Below, one piece after another: positions 3,953-55,703 of a DNA stretch of 64,000 nt. Within the stretch, counting starts at the first letter, position 1, and each line of letters starts with the position of its first letter. A model generated the notes under the pieces. It saw only the letters and a program-made list of their open reading frames with translations, was not told where the DNA came from and did not search any database. Source of the DNA: Mobula hypostoma (Eukaryota); assembly GCF_963921235.1 (NCBI RefSeq), contig NC_086097.1, forward strand, positions 116,190,001-116,254,000, in the 5' to 3' direction. Made by a program: the position numbers and the translations under genes.

Positions 3953-4027
3953 ATCAATGTAAGAGATGATTTCTCTGAAACACAGGTTAGAAGATGCTGA
4001 GGAGAAGGAAACTTTCTACTACTTTGC

Positions 4028-4400
4028 AACTCACACAAGTTGCTGGAGGAACTCAGCAAGTCAGGCAGCACCTATGGAGAACAATGCGCAGTTGACAGTT
4101 CATCAGGACTGGAAAGGAAGAGAGAAGAAGCCCGAATAAGAAGGTGGGGGGAAAGAGAAGAAGTATGACCTGGCAGATCATAGGTGAAACCAGGTGAGGC
4201 TAAAGGTGAGTGGGTGAGGCGGTGGGGGGGGGGGGCGGTGCGTTGTTGAAGTGAAAAGCTGGGAGTTGACAGGTTGAACAGGTAAAGGACCTAAGAAGGG
4301 ATCTGATAGGAAGGGGAAGAGTACCATGGGAGCAAGAGAAGGAGAAGGGGCATCAGTGGGAGGTGATGGGCAGAAGAGGAGAAGAGGCAAGAGGGGAGCC
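4028..4400 (-). mobile_element. Penelope 3'-end-derived non-autonomous repeat
   Basis: GCTGGAGGAACTCAGCAAGTCAGGCAGCA plus CATCAGGACT (reverse complement of the AGTCCTGATG hammerhead start) and a purine-rich tract resembling the reverse complement of 42900-43255. Confidence 0.7.
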
Positions 4401-23228: not shown

Positions 23229-25184
23229 ATAAACTCCCCTTCCTTTTGATTCTACTAATGAAACCTAAATCATTCTACATTCAGCAATGGTTTCGGTTCT
23301 AAATATTCCTATGTTACTTTCACAATATCAGCAAAGCTCATTTTAGCTTGTTTGCTTGGAGTGGTCAAACTTCTAAGCAAACTGCATGCTTTTCCACCTA
23401 TCACACTCAGCAAAACTGGCACTCGTTTCTCATAGGCTCTTTCATTGGCTTTAAAATGCTGCTGAATTCATTCAGTCTAGATCAGCCATTTACCTTGTGT
23501 GCATATCAGATGTATCTATGTTTCTAATGTTGCCAGCTACTTCTGCTCTTTTCTAAAAATGTATTATTATCACCCAGTATTCATTCTTTCTGAATCCATG
23601 AATATCAACTGCTATTGGCTTTTTCAAACTGGAATGTTTTGCTGTGCTTCCACACTTACTTTTCTCCACTCTTGTCTTTTGTAACTTCAAAAACTAATTG
23701 AAAGAAAATCGCTGGACAAGGGCTATACATGTCTACTTTGTTTTAAATTTTTGTGAGGTGCATACTTATATGATGTAACGATGTATGCTATTCACATACT
23801 TTTACAGATAACCTGTAATGAATTACTTAAACAAACAAAGAATGTTTAATCAAACAATATTTTAAATATTACTCAATTATGGAAATAATTAAAACATAAC
23901 ATCTTTAATATTATCCAAAGGGATATATTCATTTTAAGATGAGATCAGCCACGCAAAACATCTTCACTACGTGGGTGCCCCTCCGAATGGCCACCCATCT
24001 ATATGGCTGAATCTTTAGTATGACCACATCTCTGAAATTCCTATTGTAATTGGACATACTTTCTGCATCTCAATTTTCAGGGACATCTGATTATTCCTGA
24101 CTTCCCTCAACACACAGAGATGAGTACTACTCTACTAACTGTTATTATTGTTCCTCTACTAACAATTGGATTGAAAGTAAAAGAAAGATCTTATCTTGCT
24201 TAGTAATGCTTGTCCTTCTCCCTGAAGTCCAGTATTCATCAAAACCTTCACCTTGGCCTGAACAGCATGTCCTCAGGCTCAATGCAGTCCTTCTCAAAAT
24301 AATTGCTCCTTCCAGGGCTTGCATTCATTTAATAAGCTGCCAGAAGGGAAAATTAATCTGTCTCATCAGCAACCCACCTTTTAAAACAGTTGCTGATGCT
24401 CATTCAACTTTGTTGCTCAACCAGCAGGCTGAAAGCAATTGCTTAACTGGCCCCTCCCTAGCTTTGTAATGATCAAAGTAGCCACCATCACTTTGGTGCC
24501 AAGAGGGAAACAGTAACCTGCCTTAATGGTTACCACCCAGTGGCCTTGACCTCAACAATAACTAAGCTCTTTGAATGGCTGGATATGGACCATATTAAAT
24601 GGTCCATTGGACCCTTTCCAATTTCCTTATTACTAAAATTGGACCACTGAAGGTACCATAGCCTCTGCACTCCACTCCGTCCTGTTCCATTTAGAAAAAC
24701 ATTAAAGATTGTCAAGGCGTTAGCAATGATCTTCCAAAAATCATTGGACTCTGGCATGGTGCCAGAGGACTGGAAAATAGCAAATGTCACTCCATTCTTT
24801 AAGAAAGGAGGAAGGCAGCAGAAAGGAAATTATAATCCAGTTAATCTGACCTCGGTGGTTGAGAAGATGTTGGAGTCAATTGTTAATGATGAGGTTATGG
24901 AGTACTTGTGACACAGGACAAGATAGAACTAAGTCAGCATGTTTTCCTCATGGAAAAAAAACTTACCTCACAAACCTGCTGGAATTCTCTGAGGAGATTA
25001 CAAGTAGGATAAATAAAGGGAATGCAGTGGATATTGTATATTTGGACTTTCAGAAGGCCTATGACAAGGTGCCACATACGAGGCTGCTTACCAAGTTAAG
25101 ATCCCATGGTATAACAGGAAAGTTACTGGCATGGTTAGAGCATTGGCTGACTGGTAGGAGACAGCAAGTGGGAATAAAAAGATC

Positions 25185-25413
25185 AAGCAACACACACCAA
25201 AGTTGCTGGTGAACGCAGCAGGCCAGGCAGCATCTGTAGGAAGAGGTGCAGTCGATGTTTCAGGCCGAGGCCCTTCGTTGAGTCCTGACAAAGGGTCTCG
25301 GCCTGAAACGTCGACTGCACCTCTTCCTACAGATGCTGCCTGGCCTGCTGCGTTCACCAGCAACTTTGATGTATGTTGCTTGAATTTCCAGCATCTGCAG
25401 AATTCCTGTTGTT
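25185..25413. mobile_element. Palindromic Penelope-end mini-element
   Basis: Inverted arms of about 90 nt matching the Penelope 3' end at 43157-43255; 16-bp TSD TGGGAATAAAA(A/G)GATC at 25169-25184 and 25414-25429. Confidence 0.9.
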
Positions 25414-25514
25414 TGGGAATAAAAGGATCCTTGTTTGGTTGGCTGCCAGCGACTAGTGGTGTTCTGCAGTGGTTAGTGTTGGGACCACTTCTTTTTATGC
25501 TGCATATCAATGAT

Positions 25515-30919: not shown

Positions 30920-31325
30920 TAAACACGATAAAGTCTACAGATGCTGGAAATCCAAAGCTACACACACAAGATGATGGAGGAACTCAGTAGGTCAGGCAGC
31001 ATTTATTCCATGCTCTGCCCTTTTACCTCTTCTCATCTGCCTATTACTGCCCCTGGGACCCCTGTTCCTTTCCTTTCTCCTATGGTCCACTCTCCTCTCC
31101 TATTAGAGTTCATCTTCTCTAGCCCTTGACATTTCCCACCAATCTGGCTTCACCCACCACCTTCTATCTAGCATCCTTCCCTTCACCGTACTATTTTATT
31201 CTGGTGTATTCCCCCTTCCTTCTCAGTTCTGAAGCAGAGTCTCAACCAGAAATGTCAAATTTGTATTAATTTCCATAGATGCTGCCTGACCTGCTGAGTT
31301 CCTCTAGTATTTTGTGTGTGTTCCT
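30920..31325 (+). mobile_element. Penelope-derived non-autonomous element with inverted ends
   Basis: GGAGGAACTCAGTAGGTCAGGCAGCAT (about 30977) is inverted against ATGCTGCCTGACCTGCTGAGTTCCTC (about 31280); degenerate hammerhead at about 31225-31260. Confidence 0.75.
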
Positions 31326-31329
31326 TTAG

Positions 31330-31895
31330 TGAGTTGACATTTGGAATATTGCATCCAATTCAGGTCACCCAGCGATAGGAAAGATGCTATTATATGGAAA
31401 GAGATATTGCCAGGATTTGAGGGACTATGTTATGGTAAGAGGTTAAGCAGGTGAGGAGTTCTTCCATTGGAGTGTAGAAGAATAAGGTGTGATTATATGA
31501 AAGGATCATATGGTGAAATTGTGAGGTGCATAGGTCGGGTGAATGAACACATTCTTTTCTGCATCCTCACAAACTAAATGGCATAGGTTTAGGGTCAGAA
31601 AGGAGAGATCTAATAGGAAGGTGAGGGGCAACATTGTTTACACAGAGAGCAGTCAGTATAAGAATAATAATAATAATAATAAGAAGAATATCTTTATTGT
31701 CATTGTTCTGGAGCAATGAAACACAGTTTATAGAATGGTCTGAGGCAGGTATGTTAGCAACATTCAAAAGGTGCTTGGTCAGGGCACAGAGATTGAAAAG
31801 ATTTAGAGGGTCAAAGGTGGACTAACTTAGACGGGAATCCTGGTTGAGATGAACCCAGTTAAGCTGAAGGGCCTGTTTCGGTATTGTATGACTCC
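31330..31895 (+). mobile_element. Old CR1 3' fragment containing an (AAT)n tract
   Basis: Degenerate HLEY..QF motif and GCTGAAGGGCCTGTT tail; (AAT)n at about 31663-31682. Confidence 0.75.
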
Positions 31896-33760: not shown

Positions 33761-34070
33761 TAAAAGTTCAACCTATGTCCCTAGTTCTTCACTATGTCTG
33801 AGACTCAATTAGTTACAAAATGATAAAACGGACTTTTAAAACTGCTGCAACTGGCAATCAGTGACAGTAACTACTTGGATTCTCACAGCAGCTTAGCATT
33901 AAAACATGGTGTTTCACAGAGGCAGAGTATCAAAAGAAATGTTGACTCAAAACAGTTCAACAATTATTACAAACGTAGAAAGATGAAGAAAGTATGCAAC
34001 AAGGTCAGGCAACGTCCAAAGAGAATAAGAGTTATGACATTTCATCAAAGGAGGAAGTATTAGGATAAAC

Positions 34071-34384
34071 CAGTGGTCCCCAACCTCTGGGCTGCGGACC
34101 GATACATTGCCGCAAAGAATGCAGGGGTGCAGCGGTGGCCGGGACGCACCCGGCACATCTTTAAGAAAAAAGAAAAGAAAACATTAGGTGCTGCCCGGCA
34201 TGACTGCCGATTGCATTGCCTCTGATCTGGACCGACATTTACGTGCTGGGCGGCACCTAATTAATTAGTTTGTTTATTTTGGCTTTTTTCTTAAAGATGT
34301 GCTGGGTGCGTCTCGGCCACCACTGCACCCCAGCATGCTTCGCGGCAATGTATCGGTCCACGGCCCGGAGGTTGGGAACCACTG
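34071..34384. mobile_element. Palindromic hAT MITE
   Basis: CAGTGGTCCCCAACC...GGTTGGGAACCACTG termini, long internal inverted arms, 8-bp TSD GGATAA(A/G)C. Confidence 0.9.
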
Positions 34385-37300
34385 GGATAAGCAAAAGAGA
34401 ATGTTTGCAATTATAGGTGGAGAGAGAGAGAGAGAGAATGAAAGAGAGAAACAATAGGGAGGAAATTCCAGTGAAGGCACAGACATCATTGGTGGAATGA
34501 TTAAAAATCATATAAATATGCACATCAAGGCGTAGACAGTATGAAGCCTCTGTGGCTTCTGCTTCAGAAACCAACTGCCTCTCATTCTTACTGTAGTAGA
34601 AGAAGTTATAGTTTATTATGCTTAAATATATGGAGCACTTAAAAGAAAACTCAATAGTTAGGTGGAAGGTGATAACCCTCATGAATTTATTGAATTTATA
34701 CGATGAGTTTCATTACAATGAAGTCATGACCACATTGCCACAGCTAAGGAAGGTTGAAAGCTATATATATCAATCCATTTCATTCAGTCAACTTCTGAAA
34801 GCTTTGGGTGCAAAATGTTTATTTTTAGATCCATGGAAAACTCTTCGTCTCATTTTCAATCTCATTTTTTCTGATTCTATCTCTCTGTCTCTTGCTCTTG
34901 TTCTGATATTTATTTTTGGACCATGTGATATAGGAGTAGAAGTAAGCCATTCGGCCCAGCGAGTTTGCTCCGCCATTTTATCATGGCTGATGCATTTCAC
35001 GCTCAGCCCCAATCTCCTGCCTTTTCACCACAACCCTTTATGCCCTGGCTAATCAAGAATCTATTGACCTCTGCCTTAAATAGACTCAATGACTTGGTCT
35101 CCACAGCCTCCTGTGGCAACAAATTCCACAGAGTCACCATTCTCTGGCTATAAAGATTCCTCCTCAATTCCATTCTAAATGGATGTCCGTCTATTCTGAG
35201 GTTGTGCCTTCTGGTTCTAGACTCCCCAAACATAGAATCATACTGTTCACATCCACTCTATTGAGACCTTTCAATATTCCATAGGTTTCAATAAGGTCAC
35301 CTCTCATTCTTCTGAATTGCAGTGAGTACAGGACAAAAGCCAACAAACATTCATGTTACAATAACCCTTTAATTCCCCGAATCATTCTTGTGAATCTTCA
35401 GTAAACCGTCTCTAACATCAGCACATCTTTTCTGAGATAGGGGCCACAAACTACTCACAATACTCCAAGTGAAGCCTTACCAGTGCCTTGTAAAGCCTCG
35501 ACATTATATCCTTGTTTTTATATTCTAGTTGTCACATACCCGGTGACGGGTTAAAGAACCAGCAGAAATGGAAAACAATTTGGAGTCTGGTATTGCTAAT
35601 CACTAATACTATTTATTAGTAACTTCGCAATACATTAACATAAAATCAGATAAATCAAACAGGTTAGCTGTTATTATATATAAGTGTGGAAATAGAAAAA
35701 CCAAGCTTCTTCAAGTCTAGGGGTAAATAGATATAGCCTTACAGTGATGAGTGAAGTTCAGTTCAGTTTGTGGTATTGAGTTGAGTAGTGATGGAGAGAG
35801 AGAGAGGTGTTTAGTTCTTCAGGTGAGCTGATGCTGTCATCTCCCGTTGTCCTCGGAAACTTCCAAGTTAGCCAAACTTGACCAACTTAAGAGCACCGTC
35901 TTCGAGTGGTAGTCTACCAACCCACGCAAGGGTTAGATATACTAGTAGGCTCCACAGGTTTGCTCTCTCACGCACTAACAATCACAGATTGATACCTCGT
36001 AATCGATCCACAGTCCCACACTCGTGGGCACCTAAACAGGATAGTGGTAACTTCACCACTCCCTAGTGCGTCTGCGTGTCCTGTGAAACAAGCAATTACG
36101 CTGGTTCAAATACTGTTATGCGGAACACCAGCTGTCCATCAAGTAGCTCCTCTCTTCTCTCTCTGTAGGAACTTAGAAGCTGCCAGTGTCCTTGCAGAAA
36201 TTCCAAACAAGCTGTGAGTAGTCTTCGCTTCTTTCTCTCTTAATAACAAGGTGCTTGTGTTGAACAACAATTCCTCTTTTTAAAAGCACAGTTCATAGGG
36301 ATAATTCACGATCCCGCCACACCCCTTCCTTTTAGGAAAAATTTTGATGTATCAAAATTTTTAGGTTAACTGTAAATCACGAAGTTTGAAGCAATACATG
36401 TATAATTATCAGATAACAGAGCAGAAACGTGTACAATTTCTAACTTAACACCTAGATAAACAATCAGCTAGAATGTTGTCAGTACCTTTCACATGTTTTA
36501 TTTTCAGGTAATATTCTTGCAAGATCAGACCCCACCTTCTATTCTTAACCTTTATCTTAGTTAGAAACACTAGCAGATTGTGATCCGTGTAAACCAGAAG
36601 TGTTTTCTGGGCAAGACAGGCATAGACTTCAAAATGTTGTAAAGCCAGAATAAGTGATAGCAACTCCTCTCCAACAGTGGAATAGTTTTTCTGATGCATG
36701 TTAAGTTTCTTTGAGAAATAAGCTACTGGGTGTTCAATGTCATCCACACCCTTCTCTAACAGTACTACCCCAGCAGCTTCGTCACTAGCGTTTGTCGCTA
36801 TAGAAAATGGCTTGGAAAAATCAGGTGCTTTGAGCACAGGATGGTTTTCTGACATTCAAATGCCTCCTGGCAAAGGTCATCCCATACAAATCTTTCACTC
36901 TTTCCTAGGAGCTTTGTTAGGGGGAGAGCGATATCTGCAAAGTTCTTAGAAAACTTTCAGTAATACCCCACCATTCCTAAAAACCTTCTTAAAGCTTTCT
37001 TGTCATTTAGAACAGGAACCTCAGCAATAGCTTGAACCTTGGCCTGTACAGGAGCCAGTTGGCCCTGGCCTACTACATAGCCCAGATATGCAACTGTGGC
37101 ATGGCCAAACTCACGTTTAGTGAGGTTCACAGTAAGATTGGCCTTGTACAGCTTTTCAAACAGTTTTTTTACAGCCGCAATATGCTCTTCCCACGTGTCA
37201 TTCCATACAACCAGATCACCAATATAAGCCCCTGTGTTTTCTAAACCTCCAATCACAGAATTGATCATTCTTTGAAATGTCCCTGGAGCATTTTTCATCC

Positions 37301-40300
37301 TGAAGGGTAAAACATTATATTTGTATAGCCCAGAAGGTGTGACAAATGCTAAGATTTCTCTAGCCCTTTCAGTCAAAGGAACACACCAATATCCTTTCAG
37401 CAAGTGGATTTTTGTAAGGTACTTAGCCTTTCCCACTTTATCAATACAGTCATCCACTCTCAGGATAGGATAATCATCTGTCTTGGTTATTGCACTGATT
37501 TTCCTGTAGTCAGTTCAGAATCTCATGCCACCGTGCAGTTTAGGCACAAGAACGCAGGGCGCCACCTAGTCTGAGGTAGATTGTCTAATGATACCAGTTA
37601 ATAGCATGTAGCCAATTTCTTTTTCAACCATTTTCCTTTCCTCTAAGTTCATTCTGTAAGGATGCTATTTGATGGGCTGGGCTAAATTTAGAATTATGTC
37701 ATGCATTGCAGCTGTGCACCATCTTGGAACATCAGGAAATAAATCTTTATGCCTGCAAATTAATTCTTACAATTGTTTTCTCTGCGCAGGCTCCAGATGA
37801 CAGACTTTATCAGTAAGGCCTGTCAAAATAATGGAAGTCTCAAGTCCTGTTGATATGATATTCAGCTTGTTAAAATGATTTTGCAGCTCATTACCAGATT
37901 CCACAACCCCATTTGTTTTCATAACAGTACTTACTGGTACCATCTCAGAATCTTAATAAGGCTTCAGCATATTTTGTGCACTTATTGGGTAGCCCTCCTT
38001 CTGTCAGGAGTTTTAATAACATAATTCAAAGAATAAATTTTCTTAATTATTTCATGTGGTCCATGAAATTGTGCTTGCAGGGGGTTGGTCACAAGAGGGA
38101 ACAGAACCAGAACCTTATCTCCAACCTCAAACACCTGTACCCTCGCTCTTCTATCATACTAGAGTTTCATTTTAATTTGAGAGTTTTGCAAATTCTGTTT
38201 TGCAAGGTCACAAGCCTTGTTAAGTCTTTTCTCGAAATTTCAAAACATATTCTAACACACTGACACGCACTCTTGGGTTAGACCACTGCTCTCTGAGTGA
38301 GGTCAAATGTCCTTTGAGCCTGTGGCCGATAATTAGCTCAAATGGACTAAACCCCAGGGATTCTTGAGTTATGGCTCTCACGGCAAAAAGTAATAAATGT
38401 TCCCCTTCTTCCCAGTCCCTGTCATTCTCATGACAGTAGGTTTTAATCATGGTCTTTAAAGTGGAATGGAACTGTTCCCAGGTTCCCTCGGACCCTGTGT
38501 GATATGCAGATGACTCAATGTGCTTAGCTCCCAGTTCTCCAACTATCTCCTAGAATGTTCTCAAAGTAAAGTTACTACCCTGGTCAGATTGAATTTCTTT
38601 GGGCAGACATACCAGTGTGAAAAACTTACTGAGTGCTCTTACCATAGTCTTGGCCTGGTTGTTTCTGAGAGGCACGGCTTCAGGGAACCTAGATGCAGCA
38701 CACATAACAGTTAGTACATACTGATGACCATCTGCAGTCTTTGGCAATGGGCCTACACAATCCACTATGACTCGGGAAAATGGTTCACCAAAAGCAGGTA
38801 TTGGTCGAAGTGGTGCTTTTGGGATGGCCTGATTAGGTTTTCCCACCACCTTGCACATATGACAACCTCTGCAATAATTTACAATATCCTTCCTCACATT
38901 AGGCCAATAAAATTCCCTCATAATCCTGTGCACTGTCTTCTTTACTCCAAAATATCCACCTAAAGGCATCTTGTGGGCCAGGTTTAAAATTTCAGCCCTG
39001 TAAACCTTTGGTACCACTACCTGGTGCACAATAGGTCAATCCTCACTGGCAGGCACCATAGTCTCCACTTCCTCATCAACAGCCCATCTTTAAGGTAATA
39101 TCCCATTGACTCATTCTGAAGTTCATCCTCCGAGAGAGCTGTCTCTTTTAAACCTACAATTTCATGATCTTTATTCTGTTCCTCTATAAATTCCTTTCTG
39201 GATAAGGACAAACCTTTCTCATACAACTTACTCTCCAAGTTGTAACATGGAAAGTAGAGAAGTTTGTGACAAATCATCATGATTTAAACCCCTGGTTTTG
39301 CTATCATGAGCCTCAGAACCCCCTGCCCCAAACTATCTGCATCAGCAGACTTTTTGAACATGCTTCGGGTCACTACGCAGGCAGGGTACACATCAATCTC
39401 TCTGTGTGGATCATTAGCAGCAGCTTTGCTCCTTAGCGGAAATGCTGAACAAACCTTGAATAGGTGTCAACCTCCCCCTAGTGTTTACTAAACTCAGCAC
39501 TATCAGCAGACTTACAAAAAACACGTGTACGTTGTGAAAAATGTCAAACAATCCATTTATTTTATTCCTGCAACCTTTATCCCAATTTGTCTCCATAGTA
39601 ACTTCTTTAGACAGCCTCTCAAAACCAAAAAAAATCTTCTTCTCCATATCGCAATCATGAACAACATCATAACCTTGAAAGTGTTTACATCCAAATGTTA
39701 AAACAATATTCAACAGAGTGGCATATACTTCTTCAGTAGGCCCTTGTCCTGCAAGCAGGGCAAAGGTCGCAAAACTAATCCAAACTTCACAAGTACTTTA
39801 TTCAAAAGACCAGAAACAACACTTCCCTCAATAGCTTCAGTAACATTTACTTCACCAGATTTCATCTCATCACTAACTTTTAGAACACTGTCTAATACAA
39901 GTGACTGAGAATCCTCAATTTCCACTAGTACCAAGGTTAACCCCTTATTCACTGAACCAAGACCATCTGACACAAAAGAACTGCATTCCTTTCTGATTGA
40001 GTCAGACACCTCAGACATTAACTGAGCTTCAACACAAGGTTCAGTACCCTGTGAATCCACTGGTACTTCAAGAACCTGAACCCCGGCAATCGGGACAGCT
40101 GCCTCTTCTAGGCTGTTATCACTTGTCCCAGTTTCAAATTCTAGATTACCCTGAACCTCCCAGCTACTCTCTGGCAAACTCTCATCCGGGGTAAACTCAA
40201 CCTCGTGGGTCAAAACAAACTTGACTGCTGTCTTAGCAGACCCCCACAGTGTGGCGGCATCATCTTCATCTGGGTATGCCCTTACATCATTGGGAACACA

Positions 40301-40849
40301 ATTTATAAATTTTTTCAATCAAAACCAGCTCTTCCGAGCTCTAAAAATCAATAAGGTCCAACACTAGACCTCCCAGCTGCCACATCTCCCTCTCAAACTC
40401 TCTCTGTCTTTCTGCCTCTTCTCTCAGTTTTTTTGCCTCTCTAGCCTCATGAACCCTCTGATTTTCTGCTTCATCAGCCTCGAGCTGTTTTAATTGCAAT
40501 TCATGCTCCATCTTTAATTTTGCCAACTGAAGCTGAACCTCAGCCTCAGTAAGTACCTTACCTTCAGCAAATAAATCTAACCCTCCTCTCCAATCTTTCC
40601 CTCAGCTATATCATGCTGGGCTATTACCATCTGTATCTGAGCTCTCCTCATTTTAGTGGTCACCTTTAGTCTTAACTTTTGAGCAATTCCCAACAGCACA
40701 TCCCCTCTTAGCATCATCCAGTGCTTCAGGGGTTGGTTCCAACAGAAACCTTTCAACACTAACATCCATTTCTGCTATTTTTCCACACAAACAAATCAAA
40801 AAGGATTTTCCACAATCAATTCAAACAAACACCCAAACAATTTATTCAA

Positions 40850-40867
40850 ATCCCGAACGAGCCCCCA
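40850..40867 (-). promoter_or_regulatory. Primer binding site, tRNA-Pro-like
   Basis: Minus strand TGGGGGCTCGTTCGGGAT just inside the LTR, one mismatch from the tRNA-Pro PBS TGGGGGCTCGTCCGGGAT. Confidence 0.85.
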
Positions 40868-41545
40868 ATTCTGTCACGTACCCCGTGACGGGTTAAAGAA
40901 CCAGCAGAAATGGAAAACACTTTGGAGTCTGGTATTGCTATTCACTAATACTATTTATTAGTAACTACGCAATACATTAATATAAAATCAGATAAATCAA
41001 ACAGGTTAGCAGTTATTATACAGGTTTCCCCCGCCATCCGAAGGTACAGCGTTCCTATGAAATGGTTCGTAAGCCGAAATGTCATAAAGCGAAGAAGCTA
41101 TTACCATTTATTTATATGAGAAAATTTTGTGAGCATTCGCAGACCCAAAAATAACCTACCAAATCATGCCAAATAACACATAAAACCTAAAATAACAGTA
41201 ATATATAGTAAAAGCAGGAATGATATGATAAATACACAGTCTATATAAAGTAGAAATACTTTTCCACAATCATTACTACACTGTTCTCCGTAGCGAAAAT
41301 CTCACGCAAGCGCCGTCGGCAGAAAATCCCACGCAAGCGCTGTTGGCAAAGACACGGCGCAAGCGCTCTCCAGTAACCTTTAAGCTATGAAGCTGCCAAA
41401 TCATACCAAATAACACATAAAAATACACAACCTATATAAAGTAGAAATAATGTATGTACAGTGTAGTATCACTTACTGGAATCAGAACAGCGCCAAGCAC
41501 ACTGATGATGGTGTGTTAGGCTGAGTCATCACAGGTTGGGTGGTG

Positions 41546-41893
41546 CAGTGGCCCCCACCGTCCGGGCTAACGACCGATACATTGCCGCGAAGCATACAGG
41601 GGTGCAGAGGTAGCCAGGAGGCACACAGTACATCTTTAAGAAAAAAGCCAAAACAAACATGCTAATTAATTAGGTGCCACCCGACACGTAATTGTCGGCC
41701 CAGATCAGTGCCGATTTACGATTGCATCGTCTCTAATCTGGGTTGACAATTACGTGTCGGGCGGCACGTAATTAATTAGCATGTTTATTTTGGCTTTTTT
41801 CTTAAAGATGTGCTGTGTGCCGCCCGGCTACCGCTGCATTCTCCGCGAATCGGTATCTGTCCGTGGCCTGGGGGTTGGGGTGGTGGGACACTG
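41546..41893. mobile_element. Palindromic hAT MITE, same family as 34071-34384
   Basis: Shares ACCGATACATTGCCGC and CATCTTTAAGAAAAAAG with the first copy; long inverted arms; CAGTG...CACTG ends; TSD only partly matching. Confidence 0.85.
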
Positions 41894-42276
41894 GGGTGCC
41901 ATCTCGTCATCGTCTGTTTTCATTAGAGCAGGCAGGTCATCTTCTATCTCTGCCCGCCTCGATGTCGAAGGTCGAGGTTCATCGTTTGCTGTGGCTGATG
42001 TGGAAGGCTTGCTTGACTGCTGAGCCTCGCGCATTTTTCTATCACACAGTTCTTTGTAAGGACTCAAACCATCTTGCAAATATCCCCTAAACCTACGTAC
42101 CCTTTCAAAATTAAAGTCGTACTTTATCATTGCAGTGAAAATCTCATGCAGTTGCTTCACATTCATTTTGCTACTGCATTCGATTTCGATTGTTATCCTT
42201 TCCTCTTCCAATTGCATCAGCTCTTCATCTATCAGATCTTGGTCATGGGATGCCAAAACCTCTTCAACATCATGTT

Positions 42277-43255
42277 AGCCTCCGGGTCCAACATATTATT
42301 CTCCGTAACTTCCGCCACCTCCAACGGGATCCCACCACTAAGCACATCTTTCCCTCCCCCCTCTCTCTGCATTCCGCAGGGATCGCTCCCTACACAACTC
42401 CCTTGTCCATTCGTCCCCCCCATCCCTCCCCACTGATCTCCCTCCTGGCACTTATCCGTGTAAGCGGAACAAGTGCTACACATGCCCTTACACTTCCTCC
42501 CTTACCACCATTCAGGGCCCCAAACAGTCCTTCCAGGTGAGGCATCACTTCACCTGTGAGTCGACTGGGGTGATATACTGCGTCCGGTGCTCCCGATGTG
42601 GCCTTTTATATATTGGTGAGACCCGACGCAGACTGGGAGACCGCTTTGCTGAACATCTACGCTCTGTCCGCCAGAGAAAGCAGGATCTCCCAGTGGCCAC
42701 ACATTTTAATTCCACATCCCATTCCCATTCTGACATGTCTATCCACGGCCTCCTCTACTGTAAAGATGAAGCCACACTCAGGTTGGAGGAACAACACCTT
42801 ATATTCCGTCTGGGTAGCCTCCAACCTGATGGCATGAACATTGACTTCTCTAACTTCCGCTAGGCCCCACCTCCCCCTCGTACCCCAGCTGTTACTCATT
42901 TTTATGCACACATTCTTTCTCTCACTCTCCTTTTTCTCCCTCTGTCCCTCTGAATATACCTCTTGCCCATCCTCTGGGTCACCCCCCCCCCGTCTTTCTT
43001 CCCGGACCTCCTGTCCCATGATCCTCTCGTATCCCCTTTTGCCTATCACCTGTCCAGCTCTCGGCTCTATCCCTCCCCCTCCTGTCTTCTCCTATCATTT
43101 TGCATCTCCCCCTCCCCCTCCAGCTTTCAAATCCCTTACTCACTCTTCCTTCAGTTAGTCCTGACGAAGGGTCTCGGCCTGAAACGTCGACTGCGCCTCT
43201 TCCTATAGATGTTGCTTGGCCTGCTGCGTTCACCAGCAACTTTGATGTATGTTGC
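42277..43255 (+). mobile_element. Penelope-like element (Neptune-type), 5'-truncated
   Basis: Cys-rich linker CKRNKCYTC then GIY-YIG VIYCVRCSRCGLLYIGET...RFAEH...LQPDGMN (stop at 42863); exact 13-bp TSD TCAACATCATGTT at 42264-42276 and 43256-43268. Confidence 0.95.
43157..43192 (+). ncRNA. Minimal type I hammerhead ribozyme
   Basis: AGTC-CTGACGA-AGG(GTCTCGG)CCT-GAAAC-GTC-GACT: stem I, CUGANGA core, stem II, GAAA, GUC cleavage triplet. Confidence 0.85.
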
Positions 43256-46200
43256 TCAACATCATGTTCGTCAGCTTCCACAAGCCAAACGCACGTTGTC
43301 CTTACTTTGTTCACCACGGTCGAAACACTTAATTATGTCTAGTTTTATGCTGTGTAACACCCTTACAAGCTCTTTTAGGCTTTTCCGATACCATAGAACT
43401 CATCTTGCAAATGACTGCTCACAGGCATGTGTTTAAGCAATGCCGGCAAGAATGCCATCCCGAATCTGGGGGAGAGCGGCTGCTCGGGGCGCGTGCTGCC
43501 TTTTATCGCGCGCTGCTTTTTATTCGTAACAGTGAAAACACCTTCTGAAAGTGAAAACAGGGTACTAATGTAGGTCTTTCAGAACAGTGAGGTTTCGTAA
43601 AGTGAATGTTGGAAAAGCGGGGGACACCTGTATACAAGTGTGGAAATAGAAAATCCAAGTTTCTTCAAGTATAGGGGTAAATGGATATAGTCTTACGGTT
43701 ATGTGTGAAGTTCAGTTCAGTTCATTGTATTGAGTTGAATAGTGATGGAGAGAGAGAGGTGTTTAGTTGTTCAGGTGAGCTGATGCCATCAATCTTCCTG
43801 TTGTCCTCCAAAACTTCCAAGTTAGTCAAACTTGACCAACTTAATAGCACCATCTTCAAGTGATAGTCTACCAACCCAGGCGAGGGTTAGACACAGTAGA
43901 CTCCACAGGGTTGCTCTTTCACGCACTAACAATCACAGATCGATTCCTCACGATCGATCCTCAGTCCCACACTCGTGGGCACATAAACAGGATAGTGGTA
44001 ACTTCACCACAGCCTAGTGTGTCTGCGTGTCCTGTGAAACAAGCAATTACGCTGGTTCAAATACTGTTATGCTGAACACCAGTTGTCCATCAAGTAGCTC
44101 CTCCCTTCTCTCTCTGTAGGAACTTAGAAGCTACCAGTGTCCTTGCAGAAATTCCAAACAAGCTGTGAGCAGTATTCGCCCCTCTCTCTCTCTTAATAAC
44201 AAGGTGCTTGTGTTGAACAACTCTCTCTCTCTCTTTTTAAAAGCACAGTTTATAGGGGTAATTCAGGATCGCGTCACATAATCCTCTTGAAGTGAATGCT
44301 AACACTGCAGTTGCCTTCCTCACTACGGATTCAGCCTGAAAATTAACTTCTGGAGAATATTTCAGAAGGACTCTTAGCCCTTTTGTGTCTCAGATTTTTG
44401 AATTTTATAAAATAGTCTGTGCTTTTATTCCTTCTACCAAAGGGCATAACCATACATTTTATGACACTGTATTCCATTTGTCATTTCTTTGCTCATTCTC
44501 TAAGTCTGACTAAGCTCTTCTGTAGCCTTTCTGCTTCCTCAACGCTACCTGCCCATCCACTTATCTTGGTATCATATGAAAAATTTTCCACAAGCCATCA
44601 GTTCCATCATCCAAGTCATTGACATATAACGTAAAAAGAAGCTGTCCTAACACAGACCCCTGTGGAACACCACTATTCACTGGCAGCCAATCATAAAATG
44701 TTCACTTTGTTCCCAATCTTTGCCACCTGACAATTATCCAATGCTCTATTCATGCTAGTATCTTTCCTGCAATACCATGGGCTGTAAACTTGTTAAACTG
44801 CCTCATTGTCAAAAGCCACATCCACTGATTCTCCTTTGTCTTTCCTGTTTGTTTTTCCCTTCAAAGAATTCCAAAAAATTTGTCTGTCAAGATTCTCCCT
44901 TCCAGAAACCTTGCTGACTTCAGTCTATTTTATCATGTGCCTCCAAGCACTCTGAAACCTAAGTACCAACATCTTCCCAACCACTGAAGTCAAACTGAAT
45001 GGCCTATTATTTTCCTTCTTCTGCCTCTCTCCCTTCTTGAAGAATGGAGTGACATTTGCAATATTCCATTCCTCTGGAATCATACCAGAATCTATTGATT
45101 ATTGGAAGATCATTACTAATGCCTCCACAATCTCTTTAGCCACCTCTTTCAGAACACTGGGGTGTAGACCATCTTGTCCAGGTGATTTATCTATCTTTCA
45201 GTTTCCCAAACACCTTCTCTGTAGTAATGGCAACTTCACTCACTTCTGCCCCTTGACAGTCTCAAACTACTGTCATACTGCTAGTATCTTCCACAGTAAA
45301 GAATGATGTAAAACACTTATTCAGTTTGTTTGCCATTTCCTTGTCTCCCATTAATATCCCTCCAGCATCATTTTCCAGTGGTTCAATATTCACTTTCGTC
45401 TCTCTTTTAGACTTTGTATATCTGAAGAAACTTCTGGTATCCACTTTAATATCATTGACTAGCTTACCTTCGTATTCCATCTTTTCCCTCTTAATTACTT
45501 TTTTAGTTGGCTTCTGTTGGTTTTTAAAAGCTTCCCAATCCTCTAACTTCCCAATAATTTTTGCTCTATTATATGCCCTCCGTTTGGCTTTTATGTTGGC
45601 TTTGACTTCTCTTGTCAGCTACAGTTGCATCATCCTACCTTCAGAATACTGCTTTTTCTTTGGGATGTATCAATTCTGCACCTTCTGAATTGCTCCCAGA
45701 AATTATCCACCTCACTCCTTTAGGGCATGTAATTGTTACTCTTGTGAATGTTGGCAAAGGTAGACTAGATACAGTGGTCTGACACACAAAAAAATCAGCA
45801 AATCTCATTCCAACTGTTTCTGTAATTTGCCTTGATATCATTTTTTAGCTCTATGATTTCCAAATAATTTCTATTCTATTATTTCCCTTCAAATCTGGAA
45901 GCAAATTTCAAAGTGTATTTATTATTAAAGTATGTAAACCATATACAACCCTGTGATTCATCTACTTGCAGGCAGCCACAAAACAAAGAAACACACTAGA
46001 ATCTATAAATAACCCCCCAGAACAAAGCCCAACAAATATTCAATGTGCGAAGAAAGATCAAATCACTCAAGCAATTAAAAAAAGTGAACAAATAATACTC
46101 AGAACATGAAAGTGAGTTCCTGAAGGTGGGTCCACCACTACGGAACCAGTTTATTGTTGAGTCAAGTGCAGAAGCTCGATGGCTACAGGCCACAGCTATG

Positions 46201-54994: not shown

Positions 54995-55703
54995 ACAGTC
55001 GGTGGCTAATTTATTAGGTGCACTTGCACACCTGCTCATTAATGCAAATATCAAATCAGCCAATTATGTGGCAGCAACTCAATGCACAAATGCAAGCCGA
55101 CATGGTCAAGAGTTTCAATTGTTGTTTAGACCAAACAGCAGAATGGGGAAGAACTTTGACTTGAGTGATTTTGACCGTGGAATGATATTTGGTGCCAGTT
55201 GGGGTGCTTTGAGTGTCTCAGGAACTACTTATCTGCTGGGATTTCCATGTGCAATTGTCTCTAGAGGTTACAGAGAATGGCAGTGGAAACAAACAAAAAG
55301 TCCTGTGGTGAAAATGATTTGTTGATGAGAGAGGCCAGAAGAGAATGGCCAGACTGGTTCAAGCTGACAGGAGGGTGACAGTAGCTTAAGTAACCACACA
55401 TTGTAAAAACAGAAGAGCATATCTGAATGCACAATGCATTGAAACTTGAAATGGTTCCCATTTCCATTTCAGTTCTGAAGAAGAGTTTCGGCCCAAAACT
55501 TCAACTTTTATTCTTTTTCATAGATGCTGCCTGACCCGCTGAGTTTCTCCAGTTTTTTTGTGTGTGTTGTTTTGGTTTCCCAGCATCTGCAGACTTCCTC
55601 GTGTTTATGAATCTTGAGGTGGATGTGCTACAGAAGCAGAAGACCACACTGGGTTCCACATCTGTGGCAAGACTCCTGTACCTAGTAAAAAGGCCACTAA
55701 GTG
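54995..55703 (+). mobile_element. Tc1-type non-autonomous element containing a Penelope-end insertion (about 55450-55610)
   Basis: TA-flanked degenerate TIRs; MGKNFDLSDFDRGMIFGA HTH remnant; insert carries ATAGATGCTGCCTGACCCGCTGAG. Confidence 0.85.

Follow-up and report, generated by a model that had tools for sequence, protein, structure and literature searches.

A minimal hammerhead motif of Penelope-like type in a truncated element copy of a devil ray, probably inactive in place

The window, by which we mean the whole 64-kb stretch of Mobula hypostoma DNA that was analysed, carries at 43157-43192 a minimal type I hammerhead, its core intact, of the kind found in Penelope-like elements (PLEs). 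We consider it highly probable that this is the standard hammerhead of a PLE pseudo-LTR, stranded in a dead, young copy that would most likely cut nothing: it has no partner, its core is buried in the predicted folds and it has no known sense transcript. The motif would be the usual minimal type I hammerhead of an endonuclease-bearing PLE with a Neptune/Nematis-type linker, and its family appears to be very abundant in a ray-like cartilaginous fish. At the level of the family, the literature suggests that two motifs in a tandem-copy RNA would pair through their ACGU palindromes and their stems I, that the cut after GUC would be slow and probably made only with the help of the element's own protein, and that its likely use would be the trimming of long tandem precursors, cutting being presumably unnecessary for insertion. 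In the copy at hand, reverse transcription started some 67 nt beyond the cut site on its downstream side, crossed the site and ended within the ORF, and the outcome is a dead copy of 979 bp with a 13-bp duplication, lodged in a DNA transposon that itself lies inside a Gypsy LTR. The intact core presumably reflects the fairly young age of the copy and not selection. A 5′-truncated copy with a 3′ motif only belongs to a class described in the text and Table S1 of an earlier survey (Cervera and De la Pena, 2014, PMC4209133). The features discussed below are collected in Table 1.

Table 1. Coordinates, strand and basis of the features described in the window.
Feature	Coordinates	Strand	Basis
Decayed Gypsy-type LTR retrotransposon	35530..44278	-	domain matches, LTR comparison
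Remnant of a non-autonomous DNA transposon that has terminal inverted repeats, host of the insertion	41021..43630	.	repeat comparison
5′-truncated Penelope-like element copy, 979 bp	42277..43255	+	contigs diverging at 42277 and at 43256, joint of the empty site, protein matches
Target-site duplication, left, 13 bp	42264..42276	+	sequence comparison; joint
Target-site duplication, right, 13 bp, identical to left	43256..43268	+	sequence comparison
Remnant ORF, no start, no RT core	42277..42863	+	Pfam, relatives' proteins
3′-splice-site-like run	43137..43158	+	pattern search, folding, contig variants
Minimal type I hammerhead motif	43157..43192	+	letters, folding, descriptor search, consensus in PMC4209133
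Sister insertion made of two head-to-head 3′ ends of this family	25186..25414	.	anchor, repeat comparison

The motif and the element copy that carries it

Hammerhead positions (C3, A9, 10.1, 11.1, G12 and so on) follow what we take to be the conventional numbering. Read letter by letter, stem I pairs 43157-43160 with 43189-43192 (AGTC/GACT), the core CUGACGA (C3-A9) occupies 43161-43167, G12-A14 fall at 43181-43183 within a GAAA at 43181-43184, stem III consists of the self-complementary palindrome ACGU at 43184-43187 without a loop, and the cut triplet GUC at 43186-43188 places the predicted cut after C43188. The initial annotation had named the same stem I, the CUGACGA, the GAAAC-GUC, the loopless stem III and the cut site, and had put the motif about 290 nt behind the GIY-YIG stop, all of which we recovered (the ORF stop is at 42861-42863 and the hammerhead begins 293 nt further on). 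Its AGG/CCU drawing of stem II had to be replaced, as the first pair of that drawing, A43168-U43180, had a probability of 0.02 in the 36-mer ensemble versus 0.94 for G43169-U43180. In the favoured register 43169-43172 pair with 43177-43180 as G-U, G-C, G-C and U-G around a loop at 43173-43176 (pair probability 0.86-0.96), leaving A43168 bulged between A9 and 10.1. The published consensus of minimal PLE hammerheads likewise has one base between 9 and 10.1, and it has a G10.1-C11.1 pair (>80%) where the ray motif has a G-U wobble (PMC4209133). Fig. S3 of that study has 56 rows, of which by our hand count 8 show G-U at 10.1-11.1 and 54 show the bulge; given those eight rows, the wobble does not disqualify the motif.

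A descriptor of minimal hammerheads found this site and no other on both strands of the 64 kb, and Rfam, whose families do not model the motif, gave no match at the gathering score in the whole window or at E<=10 in 42900-43400. The letters fit the CUGANGA ... GAAA N N′ U H core of PLE hammerheads and lie in a PLE terminal repeat on its sense strand. Both consensus and position agree with the earlier assignment to the PLE minimal hammerheads, a kind proposed to act as dimers.

The copy contains the end of the RT thumb and linker, the endonuclease, a pyrimidine-rich 3′ region, the hammerhead and a short 3′ end lacking the optional tail. In three runs there are contigs that pass directly from 42263 to 43256, 13 letters at the joint fitting either side, and they represent further copies of the host repeat in which the site is empty. 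Upstream of 42277, 176 contigs of run X1 continue into further element sequence. The remnant ORF has one frameshift near 42350-42365, and its frame 42342-42863 (173 aa) matches the GIY-YIG family PF01541 of Pfam (E 6.3e-5, 23.6 bits versus a cut-off of 22.6). In an alignment of relatives the endonuclease residues C83, C86 and H127 are invariant and H105 and H121 nearly so. The closest protein is a Mobula hypostoma (devil ray) model at 91% identity, 157 of 172 ORF residues are identical to P0001, and further relatives occur in Hypanus, whale shark and zebra shark. The longer ones carry an RVT_1/PLE-type RT upstream of the endonuclease (21 hits among 584 candidates). As in endonuclease-bearing PLEs, a C-terminal GIY-YIG domain with CCHH residues stands behind an RT, which is missing from this copy and seen in its relatives; target duplication, 5′ truncation, an optional tail of 30-40 nt and an inverted 5′ partner, which also belong to these elements, were all found in the family. 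Being 5′-truncated, frameshifted and without an RT core, the copy is dead. A CX2-5CxxC linker between RT and endonuclease defines the Neptune or Nematis clade (PMC8557442), and a CX4CxxC linker lies at 42459-42485 (C40-X4-C45-X2-C48 of the frame); as judged by this linker, the clade is Neptune/Nematis-type and not Penelope/Poseidon.

Two further observations concern the coding capacity of the family. One plus-strand frame without an ATG is open from 43022 to 43255, through the hammerhead to the element end; it may be the element's N-terminal frame, since the ORF of the lizard element PAc starts inside its hammerhead. Three ray gene models, P0003, P0004 and P0014, named as mucin-2, divergent protein kinase domain 1C and a chitinase-domain protein, consist mostly of PLE ORF, and these names are likely annotation artefacts.

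Nested repeats and other copies of the family

The DNA transposon that received the insertion, which we take to be Tigger/pogo-like, is multi-copy by flank depth and by the empty-site joint in contigs, and gave no Pfam match. It splits the 5′ LTR (40872-44278) of the Gypsy element, whose other LTR lies at 35530-36321 (89% identity over 653 nt, 95% over 149 nt). The resulting three-level nesting at 35530-44278, with the PLE copy inside the DNA transposon inside the Gypsy 5′ LTR, gives the order in which the elements were active. The nearest promoter-type element would be the Gypsy LTR, which is oriented opposite to the hammerhead, and a transcript from it would bear the hammerhead's complement. 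The 284 stop-free frames of at least 62 aa, a length that short exons would escape, yielded no recognisable host exon, and the matches of these frames at or near the cut-off were all to domains of mobile-element type, except for a weak DUF5106 below it. Long internal palindromes with 113-nt arms 10 nt apart lie at 41603-41838 and 34070-34385 in related repeats, one of them inside the host DNA transposon.

Using an anchor downstream of the motif, we identified seven family copies in the window versus 0.00 expected. None of the other six passes the hammerhead descriptor, their cores being changed or missing. The sister insertion at 25.2 kb consists of a minus arm at 25186-25278 and a plus arm at about 25281-25414 with a tail of ~34 nt, flanked by a 16-bp target duplication with one mismatch. 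G8 is changed in the plus arm and C3-G5 are missing in the minus arm, and the two meet on the 5′ side of the ribozyme, at a point where flank and core of the element are complementary to each other. An optional tail and an inverted 5′ partner are described as PLE hallmarks (PMC8557442, PMC3846280). The pair (25169-25429) forms a near-perfect hairpin of ~96 bp at -190.8 kcal/mol within a LINE RT remnant and, if transcribed, would yield long double-stranded RNA. We rejected this pair as a dimer partner on account of its changed core, its arms on opposite strands and its folding into that single hairpin.

The tail recurs in the contigs that cross 43256, which continue into it in 344 cases in X1, 77 in X5 and 47 in X14. 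A strand-switch joint from 43158 to 43200 in X14 suggests further head-to-head pairs, and an older pair of the same superfamily lies at 30920-31006 (-) and about 31003-31330 (+), with a minus arm that carries the tail and whose start lies some 18 nt past the cut site in the downstream direction. Two older, decayed copies complete the picture: one at 55455-55606 (+) has U-A at stem I pair 1, C at 11.1 and a changed G12, and one at 4025-4125 (-) has lost stem II.

Among five window copies, 10.1-11.1 reads G-U in three, G-C in one and is unpaired in one. Stem covariation in these few copies amounts to one stem I pair that is U-A for C-G in two of the five, a level reached by 134 of 500 shuffles. 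No family difference falls in 43142-43193 among the 40 of 67 listed. We rejected a private CpG decay of this copy as the source of U11.1, since both 25.2 kb arms share the U and most other CpGs are kept; because both arms share it and the 55.5 kb copy has C, an inherited subfamily variant is likelier. On the sequences of these two events U11.1 is probably such a variant. The zebra-shark model P0008, a spurious translation of the motif, reads P at the 11.1 codon, which in this single case fits C; none of the 13 candidates for such translations could be scored at 11.1.

Half or more of the words of the element sequence are present in 17 runs of four organism labels. The lower share of 5-7% in X18-X20, and the placement of none of about 10 million raw reads from X21, carry no evidential weight. 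Summed contig depth in X1, which may be the source sample, is 1.9-8.9 million over the element and 0.15-0.7 million over the flanks, which shows a multi-copy family, although a depth sum is not a copy number; the same sums in X1 show no step-up at 43188. A sister subfamily diverges at the end of the ORF, at 42857, with a donor-like GT overlapping the stop region (460 contigs in X1). Outside these runs, a protein search of viral contigs returned eight stretches that fit the pattern, none of them confirmed as a relative, and there was no match in prokaryote genomes searched by motif, in viral contigs searched by the downstream anchor or in plasmids. The sole metagenome match to the anchor, L001, had neither hammerhead nor element sequence around it and was judged to be chance.

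Predicted activity and competing readings

Folding argues against activity in place. In the 36-mer monomer G5-G8 pair with 43185-43188 (p 0.96-0.98) and bury the core, and with the native 5′ flank a hairpin at 43142-43172 covers it, so that stem II has a probability of about 0 in RNAs that begin at 43145 or further upstream, and of 0.1-0.4 without the flank. The active double-hammerhead dimer was computed at -9.5 kcal/mol versus -28.3 for the best dimer fold, some 19 kcal/mol better, and -20.0 for two monomers; nearest-neighbour energies ignore the tertiary contacts of the core and under-score any hammerhead. Published behaviour points the same way: cleavage was absent in a lone minimal motif and weak in dimers and trimers (PMC4209133), and the PAc motif of the lizard needed its protein for cleavage, was dispensable for insertion and left no RNA-seq ends at the site (PMC11167929). 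On these models cutting by this copy appears unlikely, because the window holds no intact partner, the core is buried, the flank hairpin blocks stem II, the dimer is disfavoured and the copy lies antisense in a Gypsy LTR. Partners in trans may be plentiful, the family being so abundant. Since this copy extends across the cut site, its template, if sense, would have been uncut when copied; antisense RNA has been proposed as the template (PMC3846280), in which case reading through the cut site says nothing about cutting.

An improbable reading, if the best placed of the alternatives, is that the motif persists chiefly for its structure or for binding a protein close to where the RT starts, or simply as a passenger, with no useful cleavage anywhere in the family. 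It would agree with a stem II that is short and has two G-U pairs, with the stable off-fold, with the normal insertion of PAc motif mutants (PMC11167929), with the success of Naiad elements, which have no hammerheads (PMC8557442), and with the other functions left possible in PMC4209133. However, PAc does cleave with its protein, with rescue of C3G by G8C (PMC11167929), and 56 animal motifs have all preserved the catalytic letters (PMC4209133), both of which speak against this reading.

A somewhat less probable reading starts from the run immediately upstream, judged here by general splice-signal consensus. It comprises a branch-point-like heptamer at 43137-43143, eight pyrimidines out of eight, and AGs at 43153-43154 (as CAG) and 43157-43158, the second of which is also the start of stem I. 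We think it rather doubtful that splicing switches the hammerhead in this ray family, with a vertebrate PLE intron that has a TACTAAC-type branch point and ends at stem I. Were it so, the pyrimidine stretch after the ORF would be an intron or part of one, with its acceptor AG abutting stem I, a proposal to which we give little credence. Just as tentatively, the tract would pair with the core in unspliced RNA, which would be off and copied uncut; and, in a step that we hold equally doubtful, splicing or factors on the tract would lift the block, an exon ending in AG rebuilding stem I. As the unspliced RNA would be the copied form, intron retention and uncut templates would both be explained, and, if true, retained introns, weak ribozymes and uncut templates of PLEs would be joined in one testable mechanism.

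Several observations are in keeping with such a switch. The substitution 43141 C>A, which gives TACTAAC, makes up 38% of summed contig depth in X1, 55% in X5 and 42% in X14, and a pyrimidine run followed by AG two bases before C3 occurs in all four copies that retain upstream sequence. The same bases make the blocking hairpin at 43142-43172 (-10.2 kcal/mol), which is matched in stability by 2.2% of 5000 shuffles and by 5 of 260 other UTR 17-mers. An intron ends at helix I in Drosophila virilis, and splicing factors are named as possible helpers (PMC4209133). One X14 contig joins 42850 to 43157. Nevertheless, that joint has TA..TT ends with unknown letters between, is absent from X5 and is also found in the DNA run X1, and of the 15 contig joints listed out of 736 none enters 43155 or 43159 with GT-AG ends. 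The strict heptamer pattern, chosen after the site had been seen, occurs only here on both strands of the window, but relaxing the branch pattern gives 37 occurrences in it, and the branch A is only 12 nt from the first AG. Older copies form the hairpin weakly (-3.4, -1.4 and -3.8 kcal/mol), and removal of the flank raises stem II only to the values given above. The signs are not independent either, because the AG doubles as part of stem I on its 5′ side and pyrimidines make up 79% of the whole 3′ region. The literature that we could search, which held few subscription journals and no Repbase, contained no splice-gated PLE hammerhead and no branch-point idea of this kind.

Less probable still, and in our view quite unlikely, is the proposal of the initial annotation that this very copy self-cleaves after 43188 by means of a second copy and cuts host read-through transcripts of the plus strand. 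All core positions are intact, stems I and II can form, stem III is palindromic, published dimers cleave somewhat (PMC4209133), and the family sequence is present in X5 and X14. However, those two sets are contigs guessed to be RNA and show the family, not this locus; the copy is a lone 3′ end, its partners in the window are defective and the predicted folds bury its core, which speaks against self-cleavage, and with no host exon recognised and the Gypsy LTR on the minus strand, the cutting of read-through transcripts is not supported. A chance look-alike has practically no standing and is ruled out, since, although the bare core pattern with one mismatch was found three times versus 1.58 expected and Rfam is silent, the full descriptor matches anything in only 1 of 1000 dinucleotide shuffles, the motif sits at the expected PLE position, and seven copies stand against 0.00 expected.

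Relation to known elements and ribozymes

The find is a real motif of a known kind in a dead copy, probably inactive in place. The motif class has been in print since 2014, and what is added here is one more copy, from a host group absent from the alignment in PMC4209133. A ray family of such very high copy number is good material for testing the role of the motif in vivo, to which this dead copy adds no special handle. Our literature search, which left most subscription journals uncovered, returned no relevant paper on Penelope ribozymes in sharks or on Penelope elements in Mobula.

The closest likeness is to the minimal hammerheads of metazoan PLEs (Cervera and De la Pena, 2014, PMC4209133), with which the ray motif shares type I topology, CUGANGA followed by a bulged base, a stem II starting with G, GAAA, a loopless palindromic 15.2-16.2, a short stem I, a pyrimidine- or U-rich 5′ flank and the occurrence of a lone 3′ motif in a 5′-truncated copy. 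It differs in its host, the 56 rows of that alignment being without cartilaginous fish, in a stem II at the short end of the range (four pairs, two of them G-U) and in the branch-point-like heptamer just upstream. In the Drosophila virilis Penelope motif a splice-acceptor AG lies where helix I begins on its 5′ side, an arrangement that in the ray is a prediction only, but unlike the ray motif the fly motif has a small looped helix III, a helix I of 2 bp and a known intron (PMC4209133).

With the hammerhead of PAc, the Poseidon element of Anolis, the ray motif has in common its place in a pseudo-LTR, two alternative 3′ ends (the optional tail) and copies made from uncut RNA. PAc belongs to Penelope/Poseidon, whereas the ray element has the CX2-5CxxC linker of Neptune/Nematis, and protein-assisted cleavage is a feature of PAc, whereas the ray motif is known from sequence and folding (PMC11167929). 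Finally, the animal non-LTR retrozymes also carry type I hammerheads from PLE pseudo-LTRs, and one chondrichthyan genome is reported among them (bioRxiv 10.64898/2026.07.22.740005). Retrozymes are non-coding tandem units with a hammerhead in each, in contrast to the ray sequence, which has no tandem unit and is a single copy with an ORF remnant. The chondrichthyan family may already be listed in the supplements of that study.
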